A DNA stretch of 38,458 nt from sequence record ON470580; one strand, written 5' to 3'. The notes under the pieces were generated by a model, which saw only the letters and a list, made by a program, of their open reading frames with translations, had not been told where the DNA came from and made no database searches. The DNA comes from Escherichia phage vB_EcoM-606R7. Shown here piece after piece: positions 9,911-38,458 of the stretch (positions within the stretch are counted from its first letter, which is position 1; each line of letters opens with the position of its first letter). The translations under genes and the position numbers were made by a program.

Positions 9911-9924
9911 CGTATTTCTCCTGA

Positions 9925-11976: not shown

Positions 11977-11987
11977 AATGACCTCGG

Positions 11988-16688: not shown

Positions 16689-16763
<75 letters not shown>

Positions 16764-16766
16764 ATA

Positions 16767-16842
<76 letters not shown>

Positions 16843-16844
16843 AC

Positions 16845-16921
16845 TGGACCGCCACCGGGGACTCGAACCTCGCACACTCAACTTAAAGGGTTGACGCTCT
16901 TTCCTGATGAGCTAGTGGCGG
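16845..16921 (-). tRNA. tRNA gene with an atypical anticodon loop (CCUUUAA; best guess anticodon UUU, Lys)
   Basis: Sits in the array with 2-nt spacers. Acceptor CCGCCAC/GTGGCGG (C1-G72), TAGCTCA D-arm start, T-loop TTCGAGT, CCA encoded; C at position 33 and one T-stem mismatch. Confidence 0.5.
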
Positions 16922-16922
16922 T

Positions 16923-16998
16923 TGGTGGCCCTTGCTGGATTTGAACCAGCGACCTGGCGATTATGAGTCGCTCGCTCTCACCACTGAGCTAAAGGGCC
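16923..16998 (-). tRNA. tRNA-Ile2-like (gene anticodon CAT; ileX/ileZ type, alternatively elongator Met)
   Basis: GGCCCTTTAGCTCAGTGGT...CGACTCATAATCGCC...GGTTCAAATCCAGCAAGGGCCACCA resembles recalled E. coli ileX. Confidence 0.75.
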
Positions 16999-19319: not shown

Positions 19320-19592
19320 TTACCTCCAGATCCGTTGCTGGTATGTGCGGGATGGACGCGGCGGGCGTTCGGAATAAGGGAGCCTGACGTAGATTATCCA
19401 GTGACGGTAGTCGAGGCTAAGGGCTTTCTTAAACTCATATCCACGTCTGCGGTAGTTATGAATCAGCCATTCGGCCTGTTCTTCAGTGCAGGGATCGTGC
19501 TGATACCAGTCATATTTGAATGCGTGAGAACGCAGCCCGTGCCTGCTGGCAAGGTCGGTATCAGAATTGTGATGTTTGGTATTGTGCGCCAT
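19320..19592 (-). CDS. Hypothetical nin-region protein
   Basis: ORF in the correct orientation; start placed at MAHNTK because the longer ORF start runs into the upstream terminator. Confidence 0.35.
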   Translation of the reverse strand: MAHNTKHHNSDTDLASRHGLRSHAFKYDWYQHDPCTEEQAEWLIHNYRRRGYEFKKALSLDYRHWIIYVRLPYSERPPRPSRTYQQRIWR

Positions 19593-19663
19593 CGGTTGTC
19601 TCTGCTGGCGCAGCAGGTGCCAGTTGTTCAGGCTGGCGTGCGTATTGTAAACCAGAATGCCAG

Positions 19664-20354: not shown

Positions 20355-20510
20355 TTACTCCTCAGGTTCGTAAGCTGTGAAGACAGCGACCTCCGTCTGG
20401 CCGGTTCGGATTCGTACCTCGCAGAGGTCTTTCCTCGTTACCAGTGCCGTCACTATGACGGTTAAACAGATGACGATCAGGGCGATTAGCATCGCCTTTT
20501 GCTGCTTCAT
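20355..20510 (-). CDS. hok: Hok/Gef-family type I toxin (HokD/RelF-like)
   Basis: 51-aa sequence MKQQKAMLIALIVICLTVIVTALVTRKDLCEVRIRTGQTEVAVFTAYEPEE matches recalled HokD; long untranslated leader upstream (20511-20800). Confidence 0.85.
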   Translation of the reverse strand: MKQQKAMLIALIVICLTVIVTALVTRKDLCEVRIRTGQTEVAVFTAYEPEE

Positions 20511-20800
20511 AGCCTGCTTCTCCTTGCCTTTCGGCACGTAAGAGGCTAACCTAGATTTGCCGTTCATAGATTGAGCCTCAGATTAATGTTAAGCGTCTTG
20601 CAGGACGCGTAATGTTAACTGGGGCTTTTCTCTACCTGCCGTTGGTGTTCATGCCCGAGGCAGATAGCCTCAAGCACCCGCAGCAATTCTACTTAACTCT
20701 CCTTTTCCCGCAAACCGTTTTTACCCCCAGCGGCAAATCGAATACACCACCAGCGCCACCGCCATCGCAATTCCTACCGTTGTGAATGCTTCAGGCCAAG

Positions 20801-22828: not shown

Positions 22829-23083
22829 TTACATCATCTGCCAGTCTGGTTTCTCTTTTCNNNNNNNNNNNNNNNNNNNNNNNNNNNNNNNNNNNNNNNN
22901 NNNNNNNNNNNNNNNNNNNNCTCTTTCCGATGGCTCATAAAGAAAATTAACCTGATTACGTGGGTCATCCTCTTTTACCGGAAATAAAACGATATTGCTT
23001 AACTCATCTTCTGGTTTTATTTCCATGCTCTTCTCCTTTGATGTGAATGCCAGCGGTAATTGAAGCCTGATAGCTAATTTCAT
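22829..23083 (-). CDS. Hypothetical protein (interrupted by an N-run)
   Basis: ORF spans the N-run; only its N-terminal part is reliable. Confidence 0.3.
   Translation of the reverse strand: MKLAIRLQLPLAFTSKEKSMEIKPEDELSNIVLFPVKEDDPRNQVNFLYEPSERXXXXXXXXXXXXXXXXXXXXXKEKPDWQMM
22861..22920. other. Assembly gap (60 N)
   Basis: Run of n characters. Confidence 0.99.
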
Positions 23084-23546: not shown

Positions 23547-24623
23547 TTATCCCCTGAAACCAGGCGGAATTTCTGTATCAGGTTCAGAAATATGATTCAC
23601 ACAACGCTGGTTGTTCGTGCCGCTTACCGGGAGCAACCAGGGGTTCTCAAAATTCCGGTCCGGTCCAAAAAACGTCGTCGCTCGCTGAACAAATTCCGTT
23701 CCCGTTTTCCCGGTAGCCGCCAAGTATCTTGCGTAACGCCTCACGCCATCCAGCATGGCCTCTGGTGGCACCCCCTCGCGTAATCTGGCCTTCCAGGCAC
23801 TGAAAGCGGATTTCTTCGGGTTTGCCCCGGCACGCAACGGGTACTCCCGCCAGACCTGTTCGAACACATCCGGATAATCCACTCGTCCCACAGACTGCCC
23901 GGTTTTTTCCGGGACTACCCGATCGGCTTCCCGCTGAATGGCGGAATCGGCTTCAGGCTGCTGCAGTTGGTGTGATTGCTCCGGCCTTGCGGTCATCACC
24001 TGCTGCACAGCGCCCGAATCGGCTTTCAGCGCATACGCTGAATCGGCTTCCGGTGTCGTGCCTGCTGGCTGACCAGGATTGACGGTCTGAACATCCCCTG
24101 CCTGGTTCGTGGCATTTTTTACGCCATGGACCATAGTGTTTTGATCTTCTTGATCTGTATCTTTATCTGTATCTTTATCTGTCGTGACTTGTCGTGACAT
24201 GTGCGTGACATTTCGTGACGCGCCGTGACAATCGCCATTTTGTTCCCGCTTTCTTTCCCTCTCTCGCTGCGCCCTCTTGCGCTCTGCAGGAGATTTTGCG
24301 GTTTGCGAAATATTGCCGTTGTCCTCTTTAAGCACCTGGCGTTTTTCCCATCCAGTGATTAAATCACCATCAAGTACCCGCCCCTGCATCGTCTGCAAAA
24401 TTGAATCAATTACCTCTTCTGTCACGTCGAGCGCACTTGCCAAATCTTCTGTCGTGACATCAATGTGACCTCGCGTGACATTTCGTGACGCGCTCACCAA
24501 TAGGTGGATATACACTGCCATCACTGTTGCAATTGGCTGCCCTGACACCCTGGCAATTGTTCGCCACTTAGGGTCATTTGGCATGTCATGCCATAATCTG
24601 AGCCAGGCGTTAGCCATACTCAC
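23547..24623 (-). CDS. Replication initiation protein (O-like) with internal origin iterons
   Basis: 358-aa ORF immediately downstream of the YdaS/YdaT pair; N-terminal HTH-like region, acidic DKDTDKDTD linker encoded by direct repeats, C-terminal replication-type domain; contains the CGTGAC iteron arrays. Confidence 0.6.
   Translation of the reverse strand: MSMANAWLRLWHDMPNDPKWRTIARVSGQPIATVMAVYIHLLVSASRNVTRGHIDVTTEDLASALDVTEEVIDSILQTMQGRVLDGDLITGWEKRQVLKEDNGNISQTAKSPAERKRAQRERERKREQNGDCHGASRNVTHMSRQVTTDKDTDKDTDQEDQNTMVHGVKNATNQAGDVQTVNPGQPAGTTPEADSAYALKADSGAVQQVMTARPEQSHQLQQPEADSAIQREADRVVPEKTGQSVGRVDYPDVFEQVWREYPLRAGANPKKSAFSAWKARLREGVPPEAMLDGVRRYARYLAATGKTGTEFVQRATTFFGPDRNFENPWLLPVSGTNNQRCVNHISEPDTEIPPGFRG
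24183..24229. repeat. Origin-like iteron array: five CGTGAC repeats at 10-11 bp spacing
   Basis: CGTGAC at 24183, 24193, 24204, 24214 and 24224, preceded by tandem tatctgtatcttta repeats (24153-24180). Confidence 0.6.
24452..24488. repeat. Second iteron cluster: four (C)GTGAC repeats
   Basis: CGTGAC or GTGAC at 24452, 24464, 24473 and 24483, with an inverted copy GTCACG at 24419-24424. Confidence 0.5.
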
Positions 24624-24688
24624 CTCTTTTGATACCGAATCTTTTTACTCACAAATTGCCGGAAGTGATCCGGTATGAATATTGCGAG

Positions 24689-25114
24689 TCAATGCACAGC
24701 CACAATATTTCCTGCAGGGCCACCACGATTCATCTGGTTGAAACCAGCGATCGCCACTGCGACAAAATCATCAGCGTCTCTCACCAGTCGTTCCCGCGTC
24801 TCCACTAGTTCCCGAAAATAGGCTGAGCTATGGCTGCGCATTCGGGCCACCAGCAGAGGCGGCATTGCTTTTTCGATAGCTGGTAACAACGCCTGAATTT
24901 TTTTAACCGCATCAGGGGTGTCTTTCTCCACCCAGCGGAAAATTTTCTGAGTATTGCGAGCCAGGGCTTCCGGATGGCTGTCGTTATACAGTTCCGGGAA
25001 CGTCATTCCCAGCTCGAAATACGCTTTGGTAATTTTCGCAGCCGGTACTTTTTCGCCGTCCGGATGCGCCCAGGCATTCATCGCCATGCGGATATGTTCA
25101 TGTTTGATTTTCAT
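24689..25114 (-). CDS. ydaT: YdaT-like protein (CII-position regulator / putative toxin)
   Basis: 141-aa sequence MKIKHEHIRMAMNAWAHPDGEKVPAAKITKAYFELGMTFPELY... matches recalled Rac YdaT. Confidence 0.8.
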   Translation of the reverse strand: MKIKHEHIRMAMNAWAHPDGEKVPAAKITKAYFELGMTFPELYNDSHPEALARNTQKIFRWVEKDTPDAVKKIQALLPAIEKAMPPLLVARMRSHSSAYFRELVETRERLVRDADDFVAVAIAGFNQMNRGGPAGNIVAVH

Positions 25115-25338
25115 GAATCACTCTTCCTTTTATCCCGGGTGGTATCCTTCTTTTTGTAAAGCTCTGGGTTCAAAGATAATTTTCCCTTGGAGTATGCAGC
25201 AGCTTCCGCAGCTCTCCCTTTCGGAACTATTTCACCGGGGCGCTTACGCCACATGTAAATAGCTTCGCGGGTTATCCCATAAAAATCAGCGACCCTCTGA
25301 ACAGAGCCAAAAAACTGAACAAGTTCATCAACTCGCAT
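25111..25338 (-). CDS. ydaS: YdaS-like Cro-type HTH regulator
   Basis: 75-aa sequence MRVDELVQFFGSVQRVADFYGITREAIYMWRKRPGEIVP matches recalled Rac YdaS; divergent from the repressor gene. Confidence 0.8.
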   Translation of the reverse strand: MRVDELVQFFGSVQRVADFYGITREAIYMWRKRPGEIVPKGRAAEAAAYSKGKLSLNPELYKKKDTTRDKRKSDS

Positions 25339-25351
25339 TTCACCCTCCTAA

Positions 25352-25371
25352 AATCTAAGTATTTTTAGATT
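25352..25371. promoter_or_regulatory. Operator: perfect palindrome AATCTAA-N6-TTAGATT
   Basis: Read directly in the 96-bp divergent spacer between ydaS and the repressor gene. Confidence 0.6.
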
Positions 25372-25395
25372 ACAGGATAATTTTTTTTAGGTCAA
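25367..25395 (-). promoter_or_regulatory. Candidate pR for the ydaS operon: -35 TTGACC, 17-bp spacer, -10 TAATCT
   Basis: Hexamers read on the minus strand; the -10 overlaps the operator palindrome. Confidence 0.4.
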
Positions 25396-25398
25396 TGC

Positions 25399-25418
25399 AA
25401 TCTAAAATAATTTATATT
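25399..25418. promoter_or_regulatory. Second operator: AATCTAA-N6-TTATATT (one mismatch)
   Basis: Same half-site and spacing as the first operator, 47 bp away. Confidence 0.45.
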
Positions 25419-25434
25419 CAACTCGCGGGAGAAA

Positions 25435-26082
25435 ATGATGGAAAGCCTTGGCATCAGGCTTAAGAAACTCAGAAAAGATAAGGGACTCACCCAAGTAGAA
25501 CTGGGTAAGCTTTCAGGCGTGACTGGGGTTACTATAGGGTACTGGGAGAAAGATCTAAACGAACCCGGCAGCAAAGCTCTAAGTAAGTTAGCCCAGGCAT
25601 TAGGAACTACTGAGTCCTATCTCCTGTATGGAGTATCGTCTCCTGAACTATCTTTTGTGCAGAGCAATCCAGGCACCAAGATCCCCTACTTTTCGTGGGG
25701 TGACGCGATTTCTTTCCTAATCTTAGAAGGAGAGAAAACAATGGGAAATGTCGATAGGATCACCACATTCTTTGATGTAGTGGAAGGTGATTTTGCCGTT
25801 TCAATGCCTGATGACACTATGCATAACCCCTCAGGGTCGCCGAGTATCCCGGTTGGTGCCACTGTGATCCTAAGACCAGGAGAGAGTTATAAAAATGGCA
25901 GTATCGTCGCTGTAATAGTTCCAGATCCACTTACAAATGAACCGTCTATGACTATAAAAAAATTAGTTATTGATGGAAAACTTGTGTATTTAAGCCCTCT
26001 CAATCCGCGCTATCAATCATCCTTGCTTACGCCAGAGTGTAAAATTGTTGCCGTAGCAAAAGGTGTACAGTTCAACCTATAA
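25435..26082 (+). CDS. CI-like repressor (N-terminal HTH, C-terminal S24/LexA-type peptidase domain)
   Basis: HTH-like segment LTQVELGKLSGVTGVTIGYWEK and an S24-like C-terminal half with a conserved KK motif; divergent from the cro-like gene. Confidence 0.8.
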   Translation: MMESLGIRLKKLRKDKGLTQVELGKLSGVTGVTIGYWEKDLNEPGSKALSKLAQALGTTESYLLYGVSSPELSFVQSNPGTKIPYFSWGDAISFLILEGEKTMGNVDRITTFFDVVEGDFAVSMPDDTMHNPSGSPSIPVGATVILRPGESYKNGSIVAVIVPDPLTNEPSMTIKKLVIDGKLVYLSPLNPRYQSSLLTPECKIVAVAKGVQFNL

Positions 26083-26105
26083 CCCTGCCATGTCCTTGAA
26101 CTTAA

Positions 26106-26130
26106 GGTCGGTTATGCCGACCTTTTTTTT
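26106..26130 (+). terminator. Intrinsic terminator after the repressor gene
   Basis: GGTCGG-TTAT-GCCGACC followed by T8. Confidence 0.65.
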
Positions 26131-26149
26131 AAATCAATTTAGATTTCCC

Positions 26150-26178
26150 TTGACTACAAAACTAAATACTTTTAGATT
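26150..26178 (+). promoter_or_regulatory. Candidate pL: -35 TTGACT, 17-bp spacer, -10 TAGATT, flanked by TTAGATT operator half-sites
   Basis: Hexamers read directly; TTAGATT at 26139-26145 and 26172-26178 is the same half-site as the operators. Confidence 0.5.
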
Positions 26179-26356
26179 TATTGCATACCAACCCACCCCG
26201 CCCCACAGAACGCCGGGCAATACTTCGAGTTACCAGGTAGTGGTCAGGGGGTAAGTAGCCAGCCCGAGGCGTAAGAACATGACGGCAGGGTTCAACTTTA
26301 ACTATGCAGCAGGTTTTTGTTCCGCTCCCCCGGCGTTAAGGGGAAATGAGGTCAAC

Positions 26357-26512
26357 ATGGATACTATCAATCTTGGCAACAACGAATCTCTGGTGTGCGG
26401 CGTGTTTCCCAACCAGGACGGCACGTTCACCGCGATGACGTATACCAAAAGCAAAACGTTTAAAACCGAAAATGGTGCCCGTCGCTGGCTGGAAAGAAAC
26501 TCAGGTGAGTGA
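26357..26512 (+). CDS. ydfA: YdfA-like small protein
   Basis: 51-aa ORF (MDTINLGNNESLVCGVFPNQDGTFTAMTYTK...) behind RBS GAGGT; resembles recalled Qin YdfA. Confidence 0.55.
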   Translation: MDTINLGNNESLVCGVFPNQDGTFTAMTYTKSKTFKTENGARRWLERNSGE

Positions 26513-26513
26513 T

Positions 26514-26642
26514 ATGGATTTCGACACAATCATGGAAAAGGCTTACGAAGAATACTTCGAAGGCCTTGCCGAAGGCGAAGAAGCTCTCAGCTTCAGTGAG
26601 TTTAAACAGGCGCTTTCCAGCTCGGCAAAATCTAACGGCTGA
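26514..26642 (+). CDS. ydfB: YdfB-like small protein
   Basis: 42-aa ORF (MDFDTIMEKAYEEYFEGLAEGEEALSFSEFKQALSSSAKSNG) starting 2 nt after the ydfA stop. Confidence 0.5.
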   Translation: MDFDTIMEKAYEEYFEGLAEGEEALSFSEFKQALSSSAKSNG

Positions 26643-26671
26643 TAAGCGAAGCAGCACCGCGAGGAATCAGT

Positions 26672-26890
26672 ATGCAGAAACGAGAACCTGTCATCATCGC
26701 GCCAGACTATACCGATGATGAACTTTATGAGTGGATGCACCAGAAAATTAATGCAGCGCAGGATCTGAAATGGGCCAATGAAGCCAGGGCTAAGCAGGCT
26801 GAAAATCTGTCCGCTCTGGAGCAGGATATCACCAGGCTGGAAAAAGCAGCGGCATTAAGCATTGCCAGAATGATTACATACCCGCGTTAA
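26672..26890 (+). CDS. ydfC: YdfC-like protein
   Basis: 72-aa ORF (MQKREPVIIAPDYTDDELYEWMHQKINAAQDLKWANEARAK...); resembles recalled Qin YdfC. Confidence 0.55.
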   Translation: MQKREPVIIAPDYTDDELYEWMHQKINAAQDLKWANEARAKQAENLSALEQDITRLEKAAALSIARMITYPR

Positions 26891-27230
26891 TAGCTAACCA
26901 ACGAAGCTAAGGTTGGTAATTAAGGAGTTCTCCACGGGTGAGGTGGAGTGCGTGCGCCGGACACGGGTGAGCATCCGGCACTGACAGTTTACTGAAAGGA
27001 TATTTCCCTGAAAAGTCAGACCATAACGCGAAAGCGCACGGCGAGGTAGCTGGTTCATAGATAGCCTGTCGTTAAATTATCGTCGACCGTGCGCTTCCGG
27101 TTGTGGCACTCCGCGAAATGGCGCGGCGGTAAGTATGGCGGGGTTATTCCTTCCCCGTTGAGGACACCGGGTTGTCAGGTTGACCATACGCTTAAGTGAC
27201 AACCCCGCTGCAACGCCCTCTGTTATCAAT

Positions 27231-27288
27231 TTTCTGGTGACGTTTGGCGGTATCAGTTTTACTCCGTGACTGCTCTGCCGCCATTTTT
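27231..27288 (+). ncRNA. dicF: DicF-like small RNA (cell-division inhibitor)
   Basis: TTTCTGGTGACGTTTGGCGGTATCAGTTTTACTCCGTGACTGCTCTGCCGCC followed by ATTTTT matches the DicF sequence as I recall it; GGCGG...CCGCC terminator stem; sits between ydfC and dicB. Confidence 0.6.
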
Positions 27289-27457
27289 AAAGTGAATTTT
27301 GTGATGTGGTGAATGCGGCTAAGCGCACGCGGAACAGTTAAAACCAAAAACAGTGTTATGGGTGGATTCTCTGTATCCGGCGTTAATTGTTAACTGGTTA
27401 ACGTCACCTGGAAGCACCAGGCACCGCATCACAAAACTCATTGTTGAGGGCGCGATA

Positions 27458-27646
27458 ATGAAAACGTTATTACCAAACGTTAATACGTCTGAAGGTTGTT
27501 TTGAAATTGGTGTCACTATCAGTAATCCTGTATTCACTGAAGAGGCCATTAACAAAAGAAAACACGAACGGGAGTTATTAAATAAAGTATGCATTGTTTC
27601 AATGCTGGCCCGTTTACGTCTGATGCCAAAAGGATGTGCACAATGA
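27458..27646 (+). CDS. dicB: Cell-division inhibitor DicB
   Basis: 62-aa sequence MKTLLPNVNTSEGCFEIGVTISNPVFTE.AINKRK.ERELLNK.CIVSMLARLRLMPKGCAQ matches recalled DicB; RBS GAGGG. Confidence 0.8.
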   Translation: MKTLLPNVNTSEGCFEIGVTISNPVFTEEAINKRKHERELLNKVCIVSMLARLRLMPKGCAQ

Positions 27647-27831
27647 ATCCAGTATTTGCACTTATTCTGACGGTTTTTCTTGTTTCCGGAGAGCCAGTTG
27701 ATATTGCAGTCAGTGTTCACAGAACAATGCAGGAATGTATGGCCGCAGCAACCGAACAGAAAATTCCAGGCAACTGTTATCCGGTCGATAAAGTTATTCA
27801 CCAGGATAACGAAATCCCGGCAGGATTTTAA
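27643..27831 (+). CDS. ydfD: YdfD-like small membrane (lysis) protein
   Basis: 62-aa ORF MNPVFALILTVFLVSGEPVDIAVSVHRTMQECM... with a hydrophobic N-terminus; ATGA overlap with the dicB stop. Confidence 0.65.
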   Translation: MNPVFALILTVFLVSGEPVDIAVSVHRTMQECMAAATEQKIPGNCYPVDKVIHQDNEIPAGF

Positions 27832-27924
27832 AACAGCACCGTAATAAATATCCAGTTTCATTCTTATATGTCAGCAATGGCAGAGATTTGTTCACCCTTA
27901 AATCTGTGATGAGGTTTATCAATA

Positions 27925-30368
27925 ATGAGCACTGATAAAGAAGAATTTGCACTATATTGCGAAGCAAAAAATGACAAAGTAAGAAAACGCCTGGGAATTA
28001 AAGGTGGTTTTTACTGGACTACAGCAAAAAAATTATCTGTTGCAATCTCCCGCTGCATTACCGCAATGGATGACAACGATTATGATGAAGACGACTTTAA
28101 AAAACCCGTCCGCGTCAATTTGCCCGTTGTTGACGACCTTCCGCCAGAAGGCGTGTTTGATACTGAATTCTGCAACCGCTATGAAAAAGGCGGGAAAGAT
28201 GGCATCACAATGACATTTATCGGCCCTTCCCCCTCTGTTCAGGACAAACCAGCCAGCACTGACAATACCAACATCAACGGCGAAGACATGACTGAGATTG
28301 AGGAGAGCATGCTTCTGCCTGTCTCCGGTCAGGAACTGCCCATTCGTTGGCTTGCTCAACACGGCAGCGAAAAACCAGTAACGCACGTTTCACGCGACGA
28401 ACTCCAGGCATTACACATTGCACGGGCTGAAGAACTACCGGCTGTTACTGCCCTGGCTATTTCGCATAAAACCAGTCTGCTCGACTCGCTGGAGATTCGC
28501 GACCTCCACAAACTGGTTCGTGACACTGACAAAGTTTTCCCTAATCCTGGTAATTCAGACCTGGGACTAATAACTGCTTTTTTCGAAGCATACCTGGACG
28601 CTGACTACACTGATCGGGGTCTGCTGACAAAAGAGTGGATGAAAGGAAATCGTGTTTCACGCATCACCCGCACGGCTTCCGGTGCTAATGCTGGCGGTGG
28701 GAACAAAACCGATCGCAATCCGAATTTAGTACACACCCTCGACACACTGGATGTGGAGATTGCAGCAGCCACACTTCCGATGGATTTTAATATTTATGAA
28801 ATTCCGGGCAGCGTTTATCGTCGCGCANNNNNNNNNNAGTCCTGAAAAAAGAAAGTCCGTTCAAAGAATGGTCCGCAGCACTTCGTGCAACCCCGGGTAT
28901 TCTGGACTATTCCCGCGCCGCTATTTTTGCACTTATCCGAAGTGCACACCCTGAATTTTATCACTACCCGGGACGCCTTCAGGGGTATATCAACGCCTAT
29001 TTGACGGAAACTGATCACGAGAACCCCAGCAAGGAAACTCTCACAGCTGCCCGGCATACGCCGGAAAAAGATATCCTGGAAGAAATTAACCGCGAGGTGG
29101 TTACTGAGCGTGAAACAGAAGAAGAAAAACCACAACCATCTGACGCAATGGCAGGTGAACAGGCAACAACTGAAACAATGGAACCGGATACAACTGAACA
29201 TTGCCAGAACGCGCAGTCGCTGGATGCTCAGTCGCAGGTGAGTTCCGCTAACCAAGTAAAAGTCACCGCTGACGAAGTAAACAAAATTATGCAGGCAGCC
29301 AATATCAGCCAGCCTGACGCCGATAAGTTACTTGCTGTATCGCGTGGTGAATTTGTTGAGGGGATTAGCGACCCTAATGATCCGAAATGGGTCAAGGGGA
29401 TCCAGACTCGCGATTCTGTGAACCAGAACCAGCATGAATCGGAACGGAACTACCAAAAAGCGGAACAAAACAGCCCAAATGCGTTACAAAACGAGCCAGA
29501 AACGAAACAATCCGAACCAGTAGCGCAACAGGAACCGGAAAAAGTCTGCACCGCCTGCGGTCAGAGCGGTGGCGGCAACTGCCCTGATTGTGGCGCGGTG
29601 ATGGGCGACGCAACATACCAGGAAACATTCGATGAAGAGAATCAAGTTGAAGTTCAGGAAAATGATCCGGAGGAAATGGAAGGCGCTGAACATCCACACA
29701 AGGAGAACCCTGGCGGCAATCAGCATCACGCCAGCGATAATAAAACTGGCGAGGCGACAGATCCCTTAATTAAGGTGAATGGTCATCATAAGCTCACATC
29801 CACCAGCAGAGCGGGGATTCATCTGATGATCGACCTTGAAACCATGGGAAAAAATCCCGATGCCCCGATTATCTCAATAGGCGCAATATTTTTCGATCCA
29901 CAAACCGGAGATATGGGACCGGAATTTAGCAAGACCATCGATCTGGATACTGCTGGCGGAGTCATTGATCGTGACGTCATTAAATGGTGGCTGAAGCAAT
30001 CACGTGAAGCGCAGTCTGCCATTATGACCGATGAAATCCCGTTAGATGATGCACTACTGCAATTGCGGGAATTTATCGACGAAAACTCCGGTGAATTTTT
30101 TGTTCAGGTCTGGGGTAATGGGGCCAACTTCGACAACGTGATTTTACGCCGTTCATACGAACGACAGGGTATCCCCTGCCCGTGGCGCTACTGCAACGAT
30201 CGCGATGTACGCACAATCGTTGAGCTGGGGAAAGCCATAGACTTCGATGCCAGAACTGCTATCCCATTCGAAGGTGAGCGCCATAATGCACTTGATGACG
30301 CTCGTTACCAGGCAAAATACGTTTCAGCTATCTGGCAAAAACTGATCCCGAGTCAGGCTGATTTTTAA
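27925..30368 (+). CDS. Exodeoxyribonuclease VIII-like protein (YdfE-like N-terminal part, DEDDh-type 3'-5' exonuclease C-terminal domain); spans a 10-N gap
   Basis: Reading frame stays open from 28839 to 30368, and the 27925-28827 ORF is open up to the gap, so one roughly 810-aa product is likely. C-terminus carries [15 protein letters not shown] and HNALDDA motifs. Reading frame across the gap is not verifiable. Confidence 0.55.
28828..28837. other. Assembly gap (10 N)
   Basis: Run of n characters. Confidence 0.99.
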
Positions 30369-30426: not shown

Positions 30427-30630
30427 ATGAGCAGCTTATTTTTAACCGAAGATGAATTGCTAATATTAACGGGCTGCAAATATGCAAGCCACCAGCGAAA
30501 ATGGTTAATGGAAAACGGGCTTCCGTTCTATACCAATCGTAGTGGCAAACCGATTGTCAGCCGGGAGCTATTTACCTGCAATAAAACTTTACCACCACGC
30601 GAGGTAGAGCCGAATTTTGGTGCGATCTGA
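30427..30630 (+). CDS. xis: Excisionase (Xis)
   Basis: 67-aa ORF immediately upstream of int with a one-base stop/start overlap. Confidence 0.6.
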   Translation: MSSLFLTEDELLILTGCKYASHQRKWLMENGLPFYTNRSGKPIVSRELFTCNKTLPPREVEPNFGAI

Positions 30631-31655
30631 TGGGAAGACGAAGGAAAAATCCTGAACACGAAAAATTACCTCCAAATGTATACCCAAATAAATATAGTTA
30701 TGTATGGAAACCAACATCCAGAGAATCTGTCACACTAACCGCCATCAAGGATGGTTTGGCTGCTTTATGGAAAAAGTATGAGGAAACTGTAAATAATCGC
30801 GATCGTGCAATGACATTCGGTCGCTTGTGGGAAAAATTCCTCGCCAGCGCCTATTACAGTGACCTTAGTCCAAGAACACAAAAAGATTATCTGCAACATC
30901 AAAAAAAGTTGCTTGCCGTATTCGGTAAGGTACCAGCGGATTCCATAAAACCAGAACACATCCGTCGATACATGGACAAAAGAGGGGAGCAGAGTAAAAC
31001 GCAAGCCAACCATGAAAAAAGCAGTATGTCCCGTGTTTACAGTTGGGGGTATGAGCGAGGGTACGTGAAGGCTAACCCATGTGCAGGTGTAAGTAAATTC
31101 AAGGCCAAAAACCGCGAACGATATGTAACCGACAAAGAATACCAGGCAGTATTAAGCGTTGCACCTCTTCCTGTTTTTATCGCAATGGAAATTGCCTATC
31201 TGTGTGCAGCGAGGGTTTCCGATGTGTTATCGCTGAAATGGGAACAGATTGGAAACGACGGGATATTCATCCAGCAAGGGAAAACCGGAAAAAAACAGAT
31301 AAAAGCATGGAGTCCACGATTACAGGCAGCGATCGAAAAAGCAAAACAGTTACCAAAATCTGCCTATGTGATCAGCAATCAATACGGCAACCGATATATG
31401 TACAAAGGCTTTAACGAAATGTGGGTAGAAGCAAGAAATCGCGCAGGCAAAATTTCAGGTATTTTAACCGACTTCACCTTTCATGATCTGAAGGCGAAAG
31501 GAATTTCAGACTATGAAGGAAGCAGCCGGGATAAGCAACTTTTCTCTGGTCACAAAACCGAAGGGCAAGTGCTAATCTATGACAGAAAGGTTAAAGTTTC
31601 ACCAACACTTGATGTCCCGTTACCTGAAAATATTCCAAGAAAATATTCCAAGTAA
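30630..31655 (+). CDS. int: Tyrosine integrase (lambda Int family)
   Basis: 341 aa; N-terminus MGRRRKNPEHEKLPPNVY parallels recalled lambda Int MGRRRSHERRDLPPNLY; C-terminal catalytic region with FHDLKAKG; ends 53 bp from tRNA-Ser. Confidence 0.85.
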   Translation: MGRRRKNPEHEKLPPNVYPNKYSYVWKPTSRESVTLTAIKDGLAALWKKYEETVNNRDRAMTFGRLWEKFLASAYYSDLSPRTQKDYLQHQKKLLAVFGKVPADSIKPEHIRRYMDKRGEQSKTQANHEKSSMSRVYSWGYERGYVKANPCAGVSKFKAKNRERYVTDKEYQAVLSVAPLPVFIAMEIAYLCAARVSDVLSLKWEQIGNDGIFIQQGKTGKKQIKAWSPRLQAAIEKAKQLPKSAYVISNQYGNRYMYKGFNEMWVEARNRAGKISGILTDFTFHDLKAKGISDYEGSSRDKQLFSGHKTEGQVLIYDRKVKVSPTLDVPLPENIPRKYSK

Positions 31656-31707: not shown

Positions 31708-31797
31708 TGGCGGAGAGAGGGGGATTTGAACCCCCGGTGGAGTTGCCCCCACTCCGGTTTTCGAGACCGGTCCGTTCAGCCGCTCCGGCATCTCTCC
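31708..31797 (-). tRNA. serU: tRNA-Ser (anticodon CGA), serU-like; probable prophage attachment target
   Basis: Hand-folded: GGAGAGATGCCGGAGCGGCTGAACGGACCGGTCTCGAAAACCGG... with long variable arm and CCA; 3' end faces the integrase gene. Confidence 0.8.
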
Positions 31798-31890
31798 GTT
31801 CAGATGGTTGCCATGATGCCAGGAAATTTGGCATTTTAACAGTCCCTGTCCGTGCAATTTTGTTCAAGTGACGAGTTTGCGAGCAAAACG

Positions 31891-32688
31891 ATGATTAAGT
31901 GGCCCTGGAAAGTACAAGAATCAGCACATCAAACTGCCCTTCCCTGGCAGGAAGCACTATCGATCCCCCTTTTAACGGGTCTGACGGAACAGGAACAAAG
32001 CAAATTAGTCACTCTTGCCGAACGTTTTTTACAGCAAAAGCGGCTTGTTCCTTTACAGGGCTTTGAACTGGATTCATTAAGAAGCTGCCGGATAGCACTT
32101 CTATTTTGCCTACCCGTTCTGGAGTTAGGACTGGAATGGCTGGATGGTTTTCATGAAGTCTTAATTTATCCTGCGCCATTTGTGGTCGATGATGAATGGG
32201 AAGACGATATCGGTCTGGTGCATAACCAACGTATTGTTCAGTCAGGTCAGAGCTGGCAGCAAGGGCCTATCGTTTTGAACTGGTTGGATATACAAGATTC
32301 TTTTGATGCATCTGGTTTTAACCTGATTATTCATGAAGTCGCTCATAAGCTGGACACCCGTAACGGCGATCGCGCCAGCGGAGTTCCCTTTATTTCGTTG
32401 CGTGAGGTTGCTGGCTGGGAACACGATCTTCATGCTGCAATGAACAACATTCAGGAAGAAATCGAATTAGTTGGTGAGAATGCAGCGAGCATTGATGCTT
32501 ATGCTGCCAGTGATCCTGCTGAATGTTTTGCCGTACTTTCTGAATATTTCTTTAGCGCCCCAGAACTTTTTGCTCCTCGTTTCCCTTCATTGTGGCAACG
32601 TTTCTGTCAATTTTATCAACAAGATCCTTTGCAGAGACTGCATCACGCTAATGATACAGACTCGTTTTCGGCGACGAATGTTCATTAA
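31891..32688 (+). CDS. mtfA: Mlc titration factor A (MtfA/YeeI), chromosomal
   Basis: Starts [28 protein letters not shown] and contains the metalloprotease-like HEVAHKLD motif; matches recalled MtfA. Confidence 0.85.
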
Positions 32689-32788
32689 TTAACAACTTTG
32701 CAGATTAATTAACCAATTGAAATGGCTTATGAAATTTAGTGTTGACAGACAAGGTACCGCTAAGTAATATGCGCTCCGTTCACACGAT

Positions 32789-32864
32789 TCCTCTGTAGTT
32801 CAGTCGGTAGAACGGCGGACTGTTAATCCGTATGTCACTGGTTCGAGTCCAGTCAGAGGAGCCA
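32789..32864 (+). tRNA. asnT: tRNA-Asn (anticodon GUU), asnT-like; HPI attachment site
   Basis: TCCTCTGTAGTTCAGTCGGTAGAACGGCGGACTGTTAATCCGTATGTCACTGGTTCGAGTCCAGTCAGAGGAGCCA read directly. Confidence 0.9.
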
Positions 32865-33025
32865 ATTTTCTGTTTTCATGCATCCTTGCAAATCTTTATC
32901 TGATGTTGATTCAACAGGTTAGTGTGAAAACTCTTCTCGGTGCATTTTGATTTTACCCTACGCATCGGGAAAAATTGGTGGTCAAATCTGGGATCAGGTT
33001 AGTTCGATAATGGAGTGACCCCCAT

Positions 33026-33941
33026 ATGTTCCTTACCGACGCAAAAATCCGCACCCTCAAGCCTTCTGATAAACCCTTTAAAGTCTCCGATTCTCACGGT
33101 CTGTATCTGCTGGTCAAGCCGGGTGGCTCCCGCCACTGGTATCTCAAAGCTGGAGGTTGCGTCCCGCACACGGCAGCACCTGAGTAACATAATGCGCCAT
33201 GCGGTCCATCAGGAGTTAATCGATACGAACCCTGCAGCAAACCTTGGCGGCGTGACCACACCTCCTGTCAGACGGCACTATCCTGCCCTGCCGCTGGAGC
33301 GGCTGCCTGAACTGCTTGAACGTATTGGGGCATATCATCAGGGCCGTGAACTGACCCGGCATGCCGTTCTGCTGATGCTGCATGTGTTCATTCGCTCCAG
33401 TGAACTGCGTTTCGCCCGCTGATCAGAGATTGATTTCACAAACCGAGTCTGGACGATACCCGCGACGCGAGAACCCATTATTGGCGTGCGTTATTCCGGC
33501 CGCGGGGCAAAAATGCGAATGCCGCATATCGTCCCCCTCTCAGAACAGTCCATCGCCATTCTGAAACAGATTAAGGATATCACCGGTAATAATGAACTGA
33601 TCTTCCCCGGCGACCATAACCCGTATAAGCCAATGTGTGAAAACACGGTCAATAAGGCACTGCGGGTGATGGGTTACGACACGAAAAAGGATATCTGCGG
33701 TCACGGCTTCCGGGCAATGGCATGCAGTGCGCTGATGGAATCGGGTTTATGGGCAAAGGACGCAGTAGAACGCCAGATGAGTCATCAGGAGCGCAATACC
33801 GTGCGCATGGCTTATATTCATAAGGCAGAGCACCTAGAAGCCCGCAAAGCGATGATGCAGTGGTGGTCGGATTATCTGGAAGCATGCCGAGAATCTTATG
33901 CACCGCCTTATACAATTGGTAAAAATAAGTTTATCCCATAG
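33026..33941 (+). pseudogene. int: HPI P4-like integrase, inactivated (internal deletion with frameshift plus an in-frame TGA at 33420-33422)
   Basis: N-terminus MFLTDAKIRTLKPSDKPFKVSDSHGLYLLVKPGGSRHWYLK stops after 51 codons; the integrase reading continues in another frame (LEVASRTRQHLSNIMRHAVHQ...) to a TGA, then resumes in frame (SEIDFTNRVWTIP... to the end). Confidence 0.8.
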
Positions 33942-34134
33942 TATACTAACGAATCCCTCACTCTGGCAAATTACCACCACCTCCACAGGAGGTGGTTCTA
34001 TATAGACTTTTATCAACTTCATGACGAAAAACACCTATTTTATCCCAAAAGAAGACAATAGAGTCACAGAGGAATCAAAGAGCGACTCAATTGTCTTTGG
34101 ACAGTCTGGTTGTGAGGTTAGAAAACAGTTACTC

Positions 34135-35439
34135 CTACACCATTAAATAGGGCGCAATGCTCGCTAATTTCTCCCGGGTTTCTGTCAGTTCGCGTTCCGG
34201 CGTAGATTGCGCGATGATTCCCGCCCCCGCCTGTATCCAGCAGCGCTGGCTATCCTGAAATACGGAACGCAGAACTAGCGCCGCATCAAAGCGCGTATCG
34301 TCCAGCAGCAGGATTGCGCCGGAATAAAGCTCTCGCGGCGTCTTCTCAATTTGCATAATCGCGTTCAGAGCAGCATTTTTAGGGATACCTGAGGCGGTAA
34401 TCGACGGAAACAGCACGGTAAACGCATCCCAGGCATCCTTGTTTTCCGAAAGCTGACCGCTCACGCCAGACCCCAGATGCTGAACGCTGCCGCGCTGGCG
34501 AACCGACATTAAATCTTCAACCACCACGCTGCCCGGCTGGCAAACAGCCTCCAGTTCAGCAATAGCTTCTTTGACAGAAAGGATATGCTCAAGCACCTCT
34601 TTACTGTCGTGCAGCAGTTCTGCCTCTTTCGCCTTATTATGCTCCGGGTTTCCCATGCGATCGCGGGTGCCCGCAAGCGGTTCAGTGACCACTTTATTGC
34701 CCATCACTGACATCACCAGTTCCGGGCTAAAGCCCAGCGCTTCGCGTCCTTCCTGACGGAACATAAACGAGCGCACAGGCGTGTTTGCCTGCCGCCCGTA
34801 TAACAGCGTGGCGGGCATATCAATCCGCGATGGCAGGGGAATGGCGCGCGAGACAATCACTTTGACATACTCGCCACGGCGGATCTCCGCAACGGCGCGC
34901 GCAACCTGTTGTTTATATGCCTCACCATTGAGGGCGGTATCCACCGCCAGTGGTGCGTTCTGCGTCGTTGTACCGGCCTCTTTTACCCACTCGCACAAAC
35001 GTCGGCACCCGTCGGCGGAGTCCGCATAAACGGTGACATTTCCCTTTTCAAAAATAAGTTCTTCACGGGGAACGGTTAACGTCAGCAGCGGCCACTCCCC
35101 GGCGTTAAAGGCAATCCCCCGCGCATGCGCCGCAAAGTTGAACCCAACCTGTCCATATACCCGACGTCCTTTCACCTGAGGATGCGCCATAAAACGACGC
35201 GCGCAGTCGGCAATGGAATCCACCGCCCATTTTTGCTCCCCGGCATCATCAATAAATGTCGCCTGCGTTCCGTCGGCATTAATGTGCAGCCGTGCCTGGC
35301 ACCCTTTGCCTAAATACCAACAGGGTTGACGCTCATAGACATAACACTCTTCTTCTGCGAACTGGCGTAAAACGCCAGAAATCGTCGGTAGCCATTGTTC
35401 CTCTGGTAACGCCAGATGTAGAAATTCACTGATTTTCAT
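34135..35439 (-). CDS. ybtS: Salicylate synthase YbtS (Irp9)
   Basis: 434-aa MKISEFLHLALPEEQWLPT... chorismate-utilising enzyme fold; recalled as YbtS; position next to ybtX. Confidence 0.85.
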   Translation of the reverse strand: MKISEFLHLALPEEQWLPTISGVLRQFAEEECYVYERQPCWYLGKGCQARLHINADGTQATFIDDAGEQKWAVDSIADCARRFMAHPQVKGRRVYGQVGFNFAAHARGIAFNAGEWPLLTLTVPREELIFEKGNVTVYADSADGCRRLCEWVKEAGTTTQNAPLAVDTALNGEAYKQQVARAVAEIRRGEYVKVIVSRAIPLPSRIDMPATLLYGRQANTPVRSFMFRQEGREALGFSPELVMSVMGNKVVTEPLAGTRDRMGNPEHNKAKEAELLHDSKEVLEHILSVKEAIAELEAVCQPGSVVVEDLMSVRQRGSVQHLGSGVSGQLSENKDAWDAFTVLFPSITASGIPKNAALNAIMQIEKTPRELYSGAILLLDDTRFDAALVLRSVFQDSQRCWIQAGAGIIAQSTPERELTETREKLASIAPYLMV

Positions 35440-35466
35440 CCCTTACCTCTCTGTGTTATTCCCGGA

Positions 35467-36747
35467 TCAATCAATTGCGCTTGTCATCAGTTCTCTTGCC
35501 GAATGCAGCCGGATATAAGCAACCCACGCCGCCAGCAACGTGAATGCCCCGGCAAACAGGAAGCAGGCCGCATAGCCAAAATGTTGAGCAACAACGCCAC
35601 CGATAACGCCTGCCAGAATGGCGATTGCCGCATCAGTACATTGAAAGAGGGTGAAGTCGACACCGGCCTGCAAAGGCGATGAAAGCGACATCAGCGTGGC
35701 GTAAAGACAGACCAGCGCGCAGGCCAGCGAAATGGACTGGACAATGACCAGACACTGGAGAATCTGCAGCAGCAGATGACCCGGCGCCATCATGAGCGTC
35801 ATCACCACCGCCAGCAGCGCGATCCCCTGGACGCCATAAGCCGTCAACAGCGCTCTGCCGGGTGAGGTGTATTTCATCAGCAATCCGCCGGCCAGCGTTC
35901 CTGCTATGCCCGCTGCAATATTGCCGCCGCTGAACAACGCGCCCAATGCGGACATGCTCAACCCATGATCCAACAACAGCGGTGCCAGAAGAGGCAGCAC
36001 AAACCGCATGCCTGAATTCAGCATCAATACCAGCAGTAAGCCCAGGCGCGCCTGCTTCCTCCTTAGCGCATAACCTAACGCCGGAACATGCAGGATAGTC
36101 GCTGTTCGCGTCGGCTCCGTAATGCGCCACAGCGGGAGTGACAGCGCCATAATCAGCACCGCCATCATCAGCATGGCGACAGGCCAGCCGGATGCCGCCG
36201 ACAGCATCAGGAACACCCCGCCGCCGCACATCATTCCCAGATAGCTGCCGCCGACCTGCACGCTGTTTCCCCAGCCGTAACCCGTGCGGGTCAGTTGATC
36301 GACACAAAAGCCGTCGCTGGCGATATCAATGGTGGAGGCGACCGTGCCTGCCACCATAAACAGAACAAATAACGCGACGATTTGCGTATCGGGGAATCCC
36401 CCTTCTCGCCTAAACCAGCCAATCGCTGCGGCAATAGTCAGGATCGCCGCTAGCGCGACCTGACCACGCAGGATTAACATGCGGGAACGGCGTTCCTGGC
36501 TACCGGGCGGAAGCCGCCAGCGCTCGATCCACGGCGCCCAAATAAACTTCAGCGCCCAGGGCAGCATAAACAGGGTTGTCGCACCGGCAAGCGCCAGCGA
36601 ACCGCCAGCAGCGCGCACCAGCGCGGGTAAGGACTGCATAGACAGCGCCGATACCAGACTCTGCGTCACATAGACGCCGGCAATAGCAAAAATCACCCGT
36701 CCGGTCGTCAACGTCGGCGGTTTCACATTCGACTGAACATCACTCAT
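35467..36747 (-). CDS. ybtX: MFS transporter YbtX
   Basis: Multi-helix hydrophobic ORF; start taken at MSDVQSNVKPP, whose ATG overlaps the ybtQ stop (ATGAGTGA). Confidence 0.75.
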   Translation of the reverse strand: MSDVQSNVKPPTLTTGRVIFAIAGVYVTQSLVSALSMQSLPALVRAAGGSLALAGATTLFMLPWALKFIWAPWIERWRLPPGSQERRSRMLILRGQVALAAILTIAAAIGWFRREGGFPDTQIVALFVLFMVAGTVASTIDIASDGFCVDQLTRTGYGWGNSVQVGGSYLGMMCGGGVFLMLSAASGWPVAMLMMAVLIMALSLPLWRITEPTRTATILHVPALGYALRRKQARLGLLLVLMLNSGMRFVLPLLAPLLLDHGLSMSALGALFSGGNIAAGIAGTLAGGLLMKYTSPGRALLTAYGVQGIALLAVVMTLMMAPGHLLLQILQCLVIVQSISLACALVCLYATLMSLSSPLQAGVDFTLFQCTDAAIAILAGVIGGVVAQHFGYAACFLFAGAFTLLAAWVAYIRLHSARELMTSAID

Positions 36748-38458
36748 GCACCCACTCTCCAGACGCGGAAACCCCGTCGTCGCGCCACACGCGCGCGGCC
36801 ATTTGCGCCTGCCACAGCGCCTGATAACGCCCATGATGTGAGAGCAATTGCGCATGAGTACCCTGCTCAACCACCTGTCCCTCTTCCATCACCAGAATGT
36901 TTCCGGCCCCGGCGATGGTGGATAAACGGTGAGCGATGATAATCACCGTCCGGTTGTAAACCAGGTTATCGATCGCTTTTTGCACCGCCAGCTCGCTTTC
37001 AATATCCAGCGCGGCAGTCGGTTCATCGAGAATGACGACTGGCGCGTTTTTCAATAACGCTCTGGCAATGGAAATCCGCTGGCGCTCGCCGCCCGATAGC
37101 TGGCCGCCCATCTCTCCCATTGGCGTCAGCCAGCCTTGCGGAAGACGGGAAATAAACTCAAGGCACTGCGCCGCGCGGGCGGCCTCTTCTACCTCCTGCC
37201 GCGTCGCCTGTGGGCGCGCGATACGGATATTCGCCAGCAGCGTGTCATCAAACAGCCAGACATCCTGGAAAACAACAGAAATCAGGCTATTGAGCTGTTC
37301 CGGCGTCAGGCGGCGAATATCGACGCCGCCAATAGAAATCTGCCCTTGCTGCGGATCGGCATAGCGCATTAACAGTTTGGTGACGGTAGTTTTGCCTGCG
37401 CCGGAGGCACCCACCAGCGCGCTCATACTGGCTGCCGGGAACGTCAAAGAAACATGATTAAGCGCGTGGCCGTCGCCTTCTTCGTAGCGATAGCTGACGT
37501 TGTCAAAGCGGATATCGTAACGTTCCGGCATCTCGCTTTGCTCTGCGACGGGAAGCGGTGCTATCGCCATAAACTGCTCAATCCGTTGCAGGGCGCTGGC
37601 GATCAGTTCCACAACCGAGGTGTAGCTGATAAACATCGCCATCGGTTCTGCGAAGCGCATAATCATCGCGACGGCGGCAATCAAAAAGGCGAGGTTCAGA
37701 GTGCCCGTCACTACCCAGACGATCCCGGATAACACCACCACCTGTAGGCCCAACTCCACGACGCTGGCGATCAGCATCGTCGCGCCAGCGCCCTGACGGT
37801 GAGTGCGGGTCTGTAAGTTTTCCAGCGCATTGAAATGCGCCAGCAGCGCCCGGCTTTTATCGGCATCGCTGCCGCAGGTGCGCAATACCATCATCCCCTG
37901 AGCAAATTCAACGATATCGCCGCTCAGACGCTGGTGCGCTTCCCCCAGCGTCTGCATTTGTCGCCGCATCGCCGGGCGGCGCCAGTAATAAAACGGCACC
38001 AGCAGAGGGAAGATCAGCAACATCACCAGCCCCAGCCGCCAGTCTATCCACAATGTCGCCAGCGACGCCGTCAGCGGCGTGACAATGGTGAGCAGCAAAA
38101 TATTGGCTATCGCAATAACATAATTGAGGTTTTCATCCACGCTGCCCAGCAGCAAGGCGTTCATTTCACCCGCCCTGCCGCGCTGGAGCTTCTCCAGCGG
38201 CACGCGGCGTAACTGCTCGCCAAGTCGCAGGCGCAACTCATGGGTGGCCTGCGCCAGATGACCACGGTATTCAAAGCCCAGGCCATACCAGCGTAGCACC
38301 AGCGTCACAATTGCGGCGACGCTGAAGGCCATAGCCCAGTTAAGAAGTTGCGGCGCGTCTCCCCGTAACAGCGCATCAATGATCGGATAAAGACAGGCAA
38401 AGGCGATCCCCTGCATGAATGCCGCCAGCAACAGCGCCAGCATACTGCGTCGCAGCAT
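36740..38458 (-). CDS. ybtQ: ABC transporter permease-ATPase fusion YbtQ (5' end beyond window edge)
   Basis: Transmembrane domain followed by Walker A GASGAGKTT, signature LSGGERQR and Walker B VILDEPT; ORF runs to the window edge. Confidence 0.8.
   Translation of the reverse strand: MLRRSMLALLLAAFMQGIAFACLYPIIDALLRGDAPQLLNWAMAFSVAAIVTLVLRWYGLGFEYRGHLAQATHELRLRLGEQLRRVPLEKLQRGRAGEMNALLLGSVDENLNYVIAIANILLLTIVTPLTASLATLWIDWRLGLVMLLIFPLLVPFYYWRRPAMRRQMQTLGEAHQRLSGDIVEFAQGMMVLRTCGSDADKSRALLAHFNALENLQTRTHRQGAGATMLIASVVELGLQVVVLSGIVWVVTGTLNLAFLIAAVAMIMRFAEPMAMFISYTSVVELIASALQRIEQFMAIAPLPVAEQSEMPERYDIRFDNVSYRYEEGDGHALNHVSLTFPAASMSALVGASGAGKTTVTKLLMRYADPQQGQISIGGVDIRRLTPEQLNSLISVVFQDVWLFDDTLLANIRIARPQATRQEVEEAARAAQCLEFISRLPQGWLTPMGEMGGQLSGGERQRISIARALLKNAPVVILDEPTAALDIESELAVQKAIDNLVYNRTVIIIAHRLSTIAGAGNILVMEEGQVVEQGTHAQLLSHHGRYQALWQAQMAARVWRDDGVSASGEWVHE

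Follow-up and report, generated by a model that had tools for sequence, protein, structure and literature searches.

The dicBF operon carried by the cryptic prophage Qin in Escherichia coli K-12 (ydfABC-dicF-dicB-ydfDE) is transcribed from dicBp, which has been treated as the analogue of the lambda PL promoter, with DicA and DicC as the analogues of CI and Cro (PMC10448788). In its small RNA (sRNA) DicF, the 3' part base-pairs with the ftsZ leader and the 5' part with xylR, as shown by compensatory mutations (PMC5069750); DicB acts through MinC on cell division and also on ManXYZ (PMC6832061, PMC10448788), and YdfD is an inhibitor of IspG whose over-expression causes cell lysis (PMC8835842). 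The cassette is spread over different prophages, including those of multi-copy enterohaemorrhagic E. coli strains (PMC5069750), and has been found in viable temperate phages. The operon, its targets, its processing, its CI/Cro-like control and its presence in many prophages and viable phages are already known. Here we describe the corresponding region of a 38,458-nucleotide (nt) stretch of Escherichia phage vB_EcoM-606R7 (ON470580), which in its entirety is referred to below as the window, and in which an initial annotation had recognized dicF followed by dicB and a ydfD-like gene.

Judged from its sequence, the region very probably represents a canonical dicBF operon (ydfA-ydfB-ydfC-leader-dicF-spacer-dicB-ydfD), in identity as well as in mechanism, which occupies the early-left (pL) position of a lambdoid prophage located at tRNA-Ser(CGA). 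The genes ydfA, ydfB, ydfC, dicF, dicB and ydfD all lie on one strand, 3' of the repressor gene, and dicB and ydfD overlap. The positions of the individual features are given in Table 1.

DicF, dicB and ydfD

A scan of the whole window with the Rfam models returned a covariance match to DicF (RF00039) at 27232-27283 on the plus strand, with a score of 73.4 bits (E 1.6e-14; gathering score 48 bits). The match spans positions 1-52 of the 52 in the model, with every consensus pair formed and no non-canonical pairs flagged. In an alignment with the Qin locus, 52 of the 53 bases (98.1%) were identical to the annotated 53-nt dicF of K-12 MG1655. The sole difference is the last base (C53A), which is unpaired in the Rfam consensus and adjoins a run of five T residues at 27284-27288. 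This run follows the terminator hairpin, composed of the stem 27245-27252/27276-27283 and an inner stem. The folded sRNA has a minimum free energy of -17.5 kcal/mol (z-score -2.85) and shows the terminator hairpin as expected. The proposal that 27231-27288 encodes DicF and ends in a terminator was thereby borne out, and both the limits given for it and those of the complete module (27231-27831) proved exact.

Nucleotides 1-52 being identical to those of K-12 DicF, both the 3' region that pairs with ftsZ and the 5' region that pairs with xylR are kept; the alignment that the initial annotation had suggested as a check thus finds the sRNA core and the ftsZ-pairing region conserved. The duplex predicted with the K-12 ftsZ leader amounts to -39.0 kcal/mol for the present allele versus -38.5 kcal/mol for K-12 DicF. 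Base 53 lies outside this predicted duplex, and C53A leaves the predicted pairing unchanged. An exact 71-nt stretch around the C53A allele occurs in 70 of the 3956 matching E. coli records, nearly all others being 95-99% identical, and the substitution was found in one of 101 DicF-slot copies on viral contigs (see below). By these counts the gene is very common and its C53A allele a minority one.

The assignment of the two downstream genes to dicB and a ydfD homolog was upheld by profile matches well above the respective cut-offs. The DicB protein scored 132.1 bits with Pfam PF05358 (cut-off 27) and 130.7 bits with NCBIfam NF049927 (cut-off 100), over residues 1-62 of 62, and shares 59 of its 62 residues (95%) with K-12 DicB; the identity at the DNA level is 95.2%. 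We infer MinC-dependent inhibition of division from this 95% identity to the characterized K-12 protein. YdfD scored 86.3 bits with Pfam PF07358 (DUF1482; cut-off 25). Compared with K-12 YdfD, 56 of 63 residues are identical (89%; DNA identity 90.6%), one codon is deleted near the C-terminus and six other residues differ. The N-terminal hydrophobic segment FALILTVFLV is kept. Lysis via IspG is predicted for the present YdfD, as it was demonstrated for the K-12 protein only. The tetranucleotide ATGA at 27643-27646 provides both the stop of dicB and the start of ydfD, and this 4-nt overlap, which is identical in K-12, suggests that translation of ydfD is coupled to that of dicB. All in all, the functions initially attached to the module (DicF acting on ftsZ, DicB acting via MinC and lysis by YdfD) are those published for the near-identical K-12 genes (PMC5069750, PMC6832061, PMC10448788, PMC8835842), which is the source from which they were assigned here. 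A 180-amino-acid (aa) open reading frame (ORF) at 27319-27861 on the minus strand, opposite dicB and ydfD, was rejected as spurious: it is broken by a stop codon in K-12 and in phage Tritos, and it is without annotation in RefSeq.

Table 1. Positions of the dicBF operon, its putative control elements and the neighbouring prophage genes in the window.
Feature	Position	Strand	Basis and remarks
cro-like gene, 75 aa, divergent from repressor gene	25111..25338	-	Pfam P22_Cro, 38.3 bits (cut-off 30.2)
Putative right operator region in cro/repressor interval, 18-base-pair palindromes ATCTAAGTATTTTTAGAT (25353-25370) and ATCTAAAATAATTTATAT (25400-25417)	25353..25417	.	Repeat finder and pattern search
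Prophage repressor gene, 215 aa, HTH_3 and Peptidase_S24-like C-terminal domain	25435..26082	+	Pfam, 47.8 and 41.2 bits
Intrinsic terminator after repressor gene, AAGGTCGG-TTA-GCCGACCTT (26104-26124) and T8 run	26104..26134	+	Terminator scan and sequence
Candidate pL/dicBp-equivalent promoter with operators	26127..26178	+	-35 TTGACT (26150-26155), 17-nt spacer, -10 TAGATT (26173-26178)
ydfA, 51 aa, DUF1391	26357..26512	+	Pfam DUF1391, 100.6 bits; 97.4% DNA identity to K-12
ydfB, 42 aa	26514..26642	+	99.2% DNA identity to K-12; PHROG 2061
ydfC, 72 aa	26672..26890	+	97.3% DNA identity to K-12; PHROG 1744
Structured non-coding leader, 340 nt, ydfC-DicF interval, holding the precursor-processing region	26891..27230	+	97.4% identity to K-12
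DicF sRNA, 53 nt	27231..27283	+	Rfam RF00039; alignment to K-12 dicF
DicF terminator hairpin and T5 run	27245..27288	+	Rfam match and fold
Structured DicF-dicB spacer, 174 nt	27284..27457	+	Fold; STnc100-like below family threshold
dicB, 62 aa, cell division inhibitor	27458..27646	+	Pfam DicB, NCBIfam
ydfD, 62 aa, DUF1482, homolog of the Qin lysis protein	27643..27831	+	Pfam DUF1482; start overlaps dicB stop
Exonuclease VIII-like gene, next in early-left operon	27925..30368	+	Full length
DUF4224 gene (excisionase position) and tyrosine integrase gene (341 aa; 30630-31655)	30427..31655	+	
tRNA-Ser(CGA), right-hand prophage end	31708..31797	-	

Leader and predicted RNA processing

The conservation extends to the RNA upstream of dicF. 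The 130 nt that precede the DicF 5' end show no difference from K-12, and the leader (folded as 26888-27290) reached -153 kcal/mol with a z-score of -3.28. In K-12, a 190-nt DicF precursor carries a 5' end made by RNase III (PMC10448788), and the 3' end of a 72-nt form is RNase III-dependent (PMC5069750). Transferred by position, the 5' end of the precursor falls at ~27094, within a predicted stem 27027-27040/27088-27100, and the 72-nt species would have its 3' end at ~27302, in the 5' arm of the long stem that closes the DicF-dicB spacer (27297-27311/27422-27436). None of the ORFs is broken, and preservation extends to the Shine-Dalgarno sequences, the ATGA overlap of dicB and ydfD, the stem of the terminator, the processing stems and the 130 nt located 5' of DicF.

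The start of ydfA differs between annotations. An alternative upstream ATG at 26279 would yield 77 aa, and this long form is the one annotated in Tritos and in ON470583.1, the latter mislabelling it as 'head-DNA stabilization protein D'. The 51-aa form is used by RefSeq and in K-12, and the homology to K-12 starts only at ~26320.

Comparison with the closest known systems

In Qin as in the window, the operon immediately follows the repressor gene, with both on one strand, and the two operons agree in the order and spacing of their genes, in the ATGA overlap and in leader and spacer. They differ in their immunity regions, which are unrelated: Qin has the 135-aa DicA, whereas the present prophage has a 215-aa repressor with a helix-turn-helix (HTH) and an S24-like domain, together with putative operators of the form ATCTAA-N6-TTAGAT. 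Moreover, ydfE of Qin is a pseudogene cut by IS2, whereas the downstream exonuclease gene is full length here, and Qin has Rem, for which no homolog was found in the window.

In phage Tritos (OV696610.1), the genes for CI, ydfABC, DicF (as misc_RNA), dicB, ydfD, exonuclease VIII, excisionase and integrase follow each other in the same order as here; the cassettes are 95.7% identical, but the repressor and the operators differ. The temperate coliphage mEp460_ev081 (LR597641.1) also carries the cassette. The integration site (tRNA-Ser(CGA), mtfA, tRNA-Asn) is shared with ON470583.1 ('vB_EcoS-689R5') and with a serU prophage in E. coli strain 165 (NZ_CP020509.1). In the latter the cassette is 99.1% identical; ON470583.1 is 98.7% identical over 24600-27900 and has a repressor that is 100% identical. 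The window is syntenic with both at 96-98%. The head-gene region of ON470583.1 differs from the window at 8151-12049, and in the strain 165 prophage the repressor is truncated while cro and the integrase gene are frameshifted. ON470583.1 was also considered as evidence of a viable phage, and was rejected as such: it contains host genes (mtfA, tRNA-Asn and the integrase of the high-pathogenicity island), and thus represents a predicted prophage region that was cut out of a chromosome. More distantly, the kil and kilR modules of Rac and of Shiga toxin (Stx) phages, which encode early-left division inhibitors directed at FtsZ, share the operon position, after the repressor gene and before exonuclease VIII/recE. 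Upstream they have, as here, the structured spacer (identity 90% or higher) and a terminator hairpin built on the DicF scaffold, but the inhibitor is Kil and not DicB.

Overall, the cassette matched 4627 of 5426 complete E. coli genomes (85%), with a median of two places per genome. Automatic annotation can miss dicF, which is absent from the RefSeq annotation of strain 165 and from ON470583.1, and present in those of K-12 and Tritos. Two aspects of the present locus go beyond the textbook case. The cassette is apparently driven by a third, unrelated immunity region, in which the S24 domain of the repressor looks catalytically degenerate, and the DicF-dicB spacer is common to kil-type modules and resembles STnc100.

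Putative promoter and operators, and the repressor

The repressor gene ends in an intrinsic terminator, and the operon therefore needs a promoter of its own. The interval from the repressor gene to ydfA contains a single promoter-like match on the plus strand, the sigma-70-type TTGACT-17-TAGATT. Copies of a palindrome, the putative operator, are found just upstream of its -35 element (26127-26144) and over its spacer and -10 element (26160-26177). Allowing up to two mismatches, ATCTAA-N6-TTAGAT matched four times in the 38-kilobase (kb) window, versus 0.86 expected, and only two of 100 shuffled sequences reached four. All four matches lie in the relevant places, i.e. two at the pL-like promoter and two in the intergenic region between the repressor gene and the divergent cro-like gene; a YdaT-like gene is likewise divergent from the repressor gene. 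This arrangement corresponds to the layout of OR and OL in lambda and supports a repressor-controlled pL. The placement of the module downstream of a candidate pL, likely under repressor control, as was initially proposed, is supported by this promoter together with the four palindromes. Based on the above, it is probable that the resident repressor controls the candidate promoter at 26150-26178. The 6-6-6 register of the palindrome came from the repeat finder; a pattern tried earlier (TCTAAA-N5-TTTAGA) occurred at chance level, with 13 matches versus 12.3 expected, and was discarded.

The repressor itself is not DicA, to which it shows 30% identity in the HTH only, and its closest phage relatives are just 36% identical. 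The region of promoter and operators is specific for this type of immunity: the homology to Tritos begins near 26190, around 10 nt 3' of the promoter, and that to K-12 near 26320, which places the mosaic junctions downstream of the promoter. These onsets imply that three or more unrelated immunity regions have become linked to the cassette.

Proposed mechanism and alternative explanations

On the basis of the K-12 data, the following course of events can be envisaged. In the lysogen, the resident repressor would keep the operon mostly off. Upon loss of repression, DicF, together with Hfq, would pair with the ftsZ leader and block the synthesis of FtsZ, with xylR, pykA and manX being repressed as well. 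Transcripts that read through the terminator would give rise to DicB, which should direct MinC to the septum and inhibit ManXYZ, and to YdfD, which would inhibit IspG and cause lysis when over-expressed. In this way, division of the host would be blocked early in the lytic programme, comparable to the action of Kil in lambda and Rac. In addition, leakage at a low level may provide the lysogen with a DicB-dependent exclusion of phages that use ManXYZ.

Several observations weigh against such a scheme. The shuffle control for the DicF-ftsZ duplex was moderate, as 16 of 500 shuffled sequences equalled it, and the ftsZ partner was taken from K-12, the ftsZ of the host lying outside the window. The fact that the repressor is unlike DicA makes its operators and its inducibility predictions. 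The interval from pL to ydfA yielded no candidate N-type antiterminator, and the DicF terminator is situated between the promoter and dicB; expression of dicB and ydfD would thus depend on read-through, which was demonstrated in K-12 only. Then, no recognizable antirepressor emerged from PHROG scans of the genes in nin-region position, which adds to the lack of a Rem homolog in the window. Finally, the S24 domain of the repressor is atypical. In an alignment of six sequences (the repressor, lambda cI, P22 C2, 434 cI, mEp390 and YeP1), the serine of the G(D/N)SM motif aligns with a threonine (DDTM) and the Ala-Gly cleavage site with Ala-Ile, while the lysine is kept. By this alignment, the repressor lacks the combination of a Ser-Lys dyad with an Ala-Gly or Cys-Gly site that marks LexA/cI-type proteins.

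A serine located five residues upstream (AVSM) could represent an alternative register. Canonical RecA-stimulated self-cleavage of the repressor appears doubtful, and the protein is possibly a non-self-cleaving cI-type repressor. Direct SOS control by self-cleavage, an idea that originated from the S24 match, was withdrawn on account of the threonine for serine and Ala-Ile for Ala-Gly replacements. An ORF in the rem position (~19320-19598, minus strand), considered as a Rem-type antirepressor, was dropped as it showed no similarity to K-12 Rem.

The wide retention of the cassette, in 85% of the complete E. coli genomes and often in several copies, allows for a different view, namely that the module mainly benefits the lysogen. 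As a moron-like cassette with low or stress-induced expression in the repressed prophage, it would then serve to exclude ManXYZ-dependent phages by way of DicB and to tune metabolism by way of DicF, and its link to induction would be incidental. The cassette indeed often resides in defective prophages; Qin is one example, and the strain 165 copy, with its frameshifted cro and integrase genes, another. DicB-dependent protection against phages has been published (PMC6832061), and so has the stationary-phase and stress-dependent formation of DicF from dicBp without full induction (PMC10448788). Nevertheless, the cassette is always found directly behind an immunity-specific pL/operator region, across three different immunity regions, and the viable temperate phages Tritos and mEp460 carry it (PMC10448788). 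The constant pL position and the carriage by viable phages form the signature of an early phage function. We consider a role mainly to the benefit of the lysogen conceivable, yet somewhat doubtful. It should be stressed that this role and an early phage function are compatible, and that neither excludes the other.

The operon could also be a silent relic, not expressed or not functional, that was conserved by recent descent and by hitch-hiking with the prophage. The rarity of C53A, the lost codon and the six other changes in YdfD, and a repressor that may be non-inducible would be in line with such decay. However, C53A touches neither the stem nor the predicted ftsZ duplex, and the ORFs and all the RNA and translation signals listed above, from the Shine-Dalgarno sequences to the processing stems, have been preserved. 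The non-coding parts are, moreover, as conserved as the coding parts across prophages with different immunity regions, which argues for selection. That the operon has fallen silent seems very improbable; to judge from its sequence, it looks functional.

The DicF-dicB spacer and the sRNA slot

The spacer between DicF and dicB is itself structured. It is predicted to fold with the long closing stem mentioned above (z-score -3.91) and has 95.5% DNA identity to K-12. Compared with STnc100 (Rfam RF02076), a family of prophage sRNAs, it scored 36 bits over positions 21-154 of the 206 in the model, which is below the cut-off of 47 and places it outside the family. The alignment is structurally coherent, the enclosing stem and the internal hairpins being aligned, and the copies in K-12, Tritos, Rac-SA53 and 75/02 Stx scored between 33 and 44 bits, all below 47. 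Apart from DicF and this sub-threshold match, no Rfam family was recovered in 26050-27950 at E-values up to 1. With an identity of 90% or more, the spacer recurs upstream of kilR in phage Rac-SA53 and upstream of kil in Shigella phage 75/02 Stx. Spacer-type elements were observed in the loci L001 (4433-4642), L004 (5501-5641), L011 (2496-2685), which is Rac-SA53, and L012 (2589-2787).

In Rac-SA53, the position of DicF is taken (2452-2506 of locus L011) by a terminator hairpin that keeps the DicF scaffold but differs in its 5' tail and its loop; it scored 41 bits with the DicF model and hence remained below the cut-off. The variant upstream of kilR is represented by GCTGTGTGTAGTCT.... In combination with the spacer, the Rac-type variant was recovered, at a query coverage of at least 80%, from 1859 E. 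coli genomes, where it is without annotation as an RNA.

A set of 111 viral-contig stretches with a 22-nt spacer motif was collected. The ORF 3' of the spacer was found to vary, encoding one of several DicB alleles, Kil, a CxxC protein of 94 aa or other proteins. In Rac-SA53 and the IMG/VR loci L013-L131, the slot occupied by DicF contained at least six tail and loop variants on a common GGCGG...CCGCC-T5 terminator scaffold. The slot could be located in 101 copies, of which 63 had canonical DicF. Covariation within the spacer was weak: among 54 unique sequences, only three pairs showed compensatory changes, each of them in two sequences, and this does not suffice as proof of the structure.

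The variants in the DicF slot could be sRNAs with alternative seeds or plain terminators, and the spacer looks like a shared RNase III/5'-untranslated-region element in front of interchangeable division inhibitors. More tentatively, the DicF-dicB junction might be one case of a modular early-left cassette for blocking division, made up of a variable sRNA slot, a near-invariant spacer related to STnc100/PasD and an interchangeable small toxic ORF; on the present sequence comparisons we would not put this beyond a reasonable suspicion. If it were true, the variants in DicF position would belong to one phage sRNA family whose members act on different host targets, and the DicF-dicB spacer would be the origin of the STnc100/PasD sRNAs. 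A 2026 preprint relates STnc100 to PasD, its main text being without DicF or dicB.

A stretch of 247 base pairs in the 254-kb record of Aeromonas phage AP1 (MT713136.1, 249906-250152) is 97.6% identical to DicF plus spacer, and is unannotated there. It could reflect contamination, an assembly chimera or a recent transfer.

Prophage context and flanks

The genes in the window are arranged in the order tail-tip, tape measure, head, terminase, lysis, four tRNAs, Q, RusA, hok/sok, replication, immunity, dicBF operon, exonuclease VIII, DUF4224 and integrase. Within the window there is no visible disruption of the head, tail, lysis, Q, replication and integrase genes, and the ORF lengths agree with those of the annotated genes in the strain 165 prophage and ON470583.1. 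The window starts inside the tail genes, with the left prophage end lying outside, and includes three runs of N (1054-1118, 65 N; 22861-22920, 60 N; 28828-28837, 10 N). Hence, the designation 'otherwise intact' is plausible for the prophage as far as can be read from its right-hand part in the window, with the three N-runs. An apparent frame break in the exonuclease VIII gene was dismissed as an artefact, as the 10 N at 28828-28837 replace eight bases. The run at 22861-22920 interrupts small ORFs of the early-right region.

Four phage-borne tRNA genes (Gly-TCC, Thr-TGT, Lys-TTT and one with a CAT anticodon) are located between Q and the lysis genes (16689-16998, minus strand). The tRNA with the CAT anticodon was called Met by ARAGORN and is a tRNA-Ile in the RefSeq annotation of strain 165. 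A hok/sok type I toxin-antitoxin locus is found at 20355-20679 on the minus strand, with an Rfam sok match of 102 bits at 20505-20679 and a HokD-like ORF ending at 20355. The host flank (31852-38458) contains mtfA, tRNA-Asn(GTT) and two fragments of a broken P4-type integrase gene (33015-33941), followed on the minus strand by genes for a salicylate synthase, a siderophore transporter of the major facilitator superfamily and an ATP-binding cassette transporter. With these genes, the yersiniabactin high-pathogenicity island at asnT begins.

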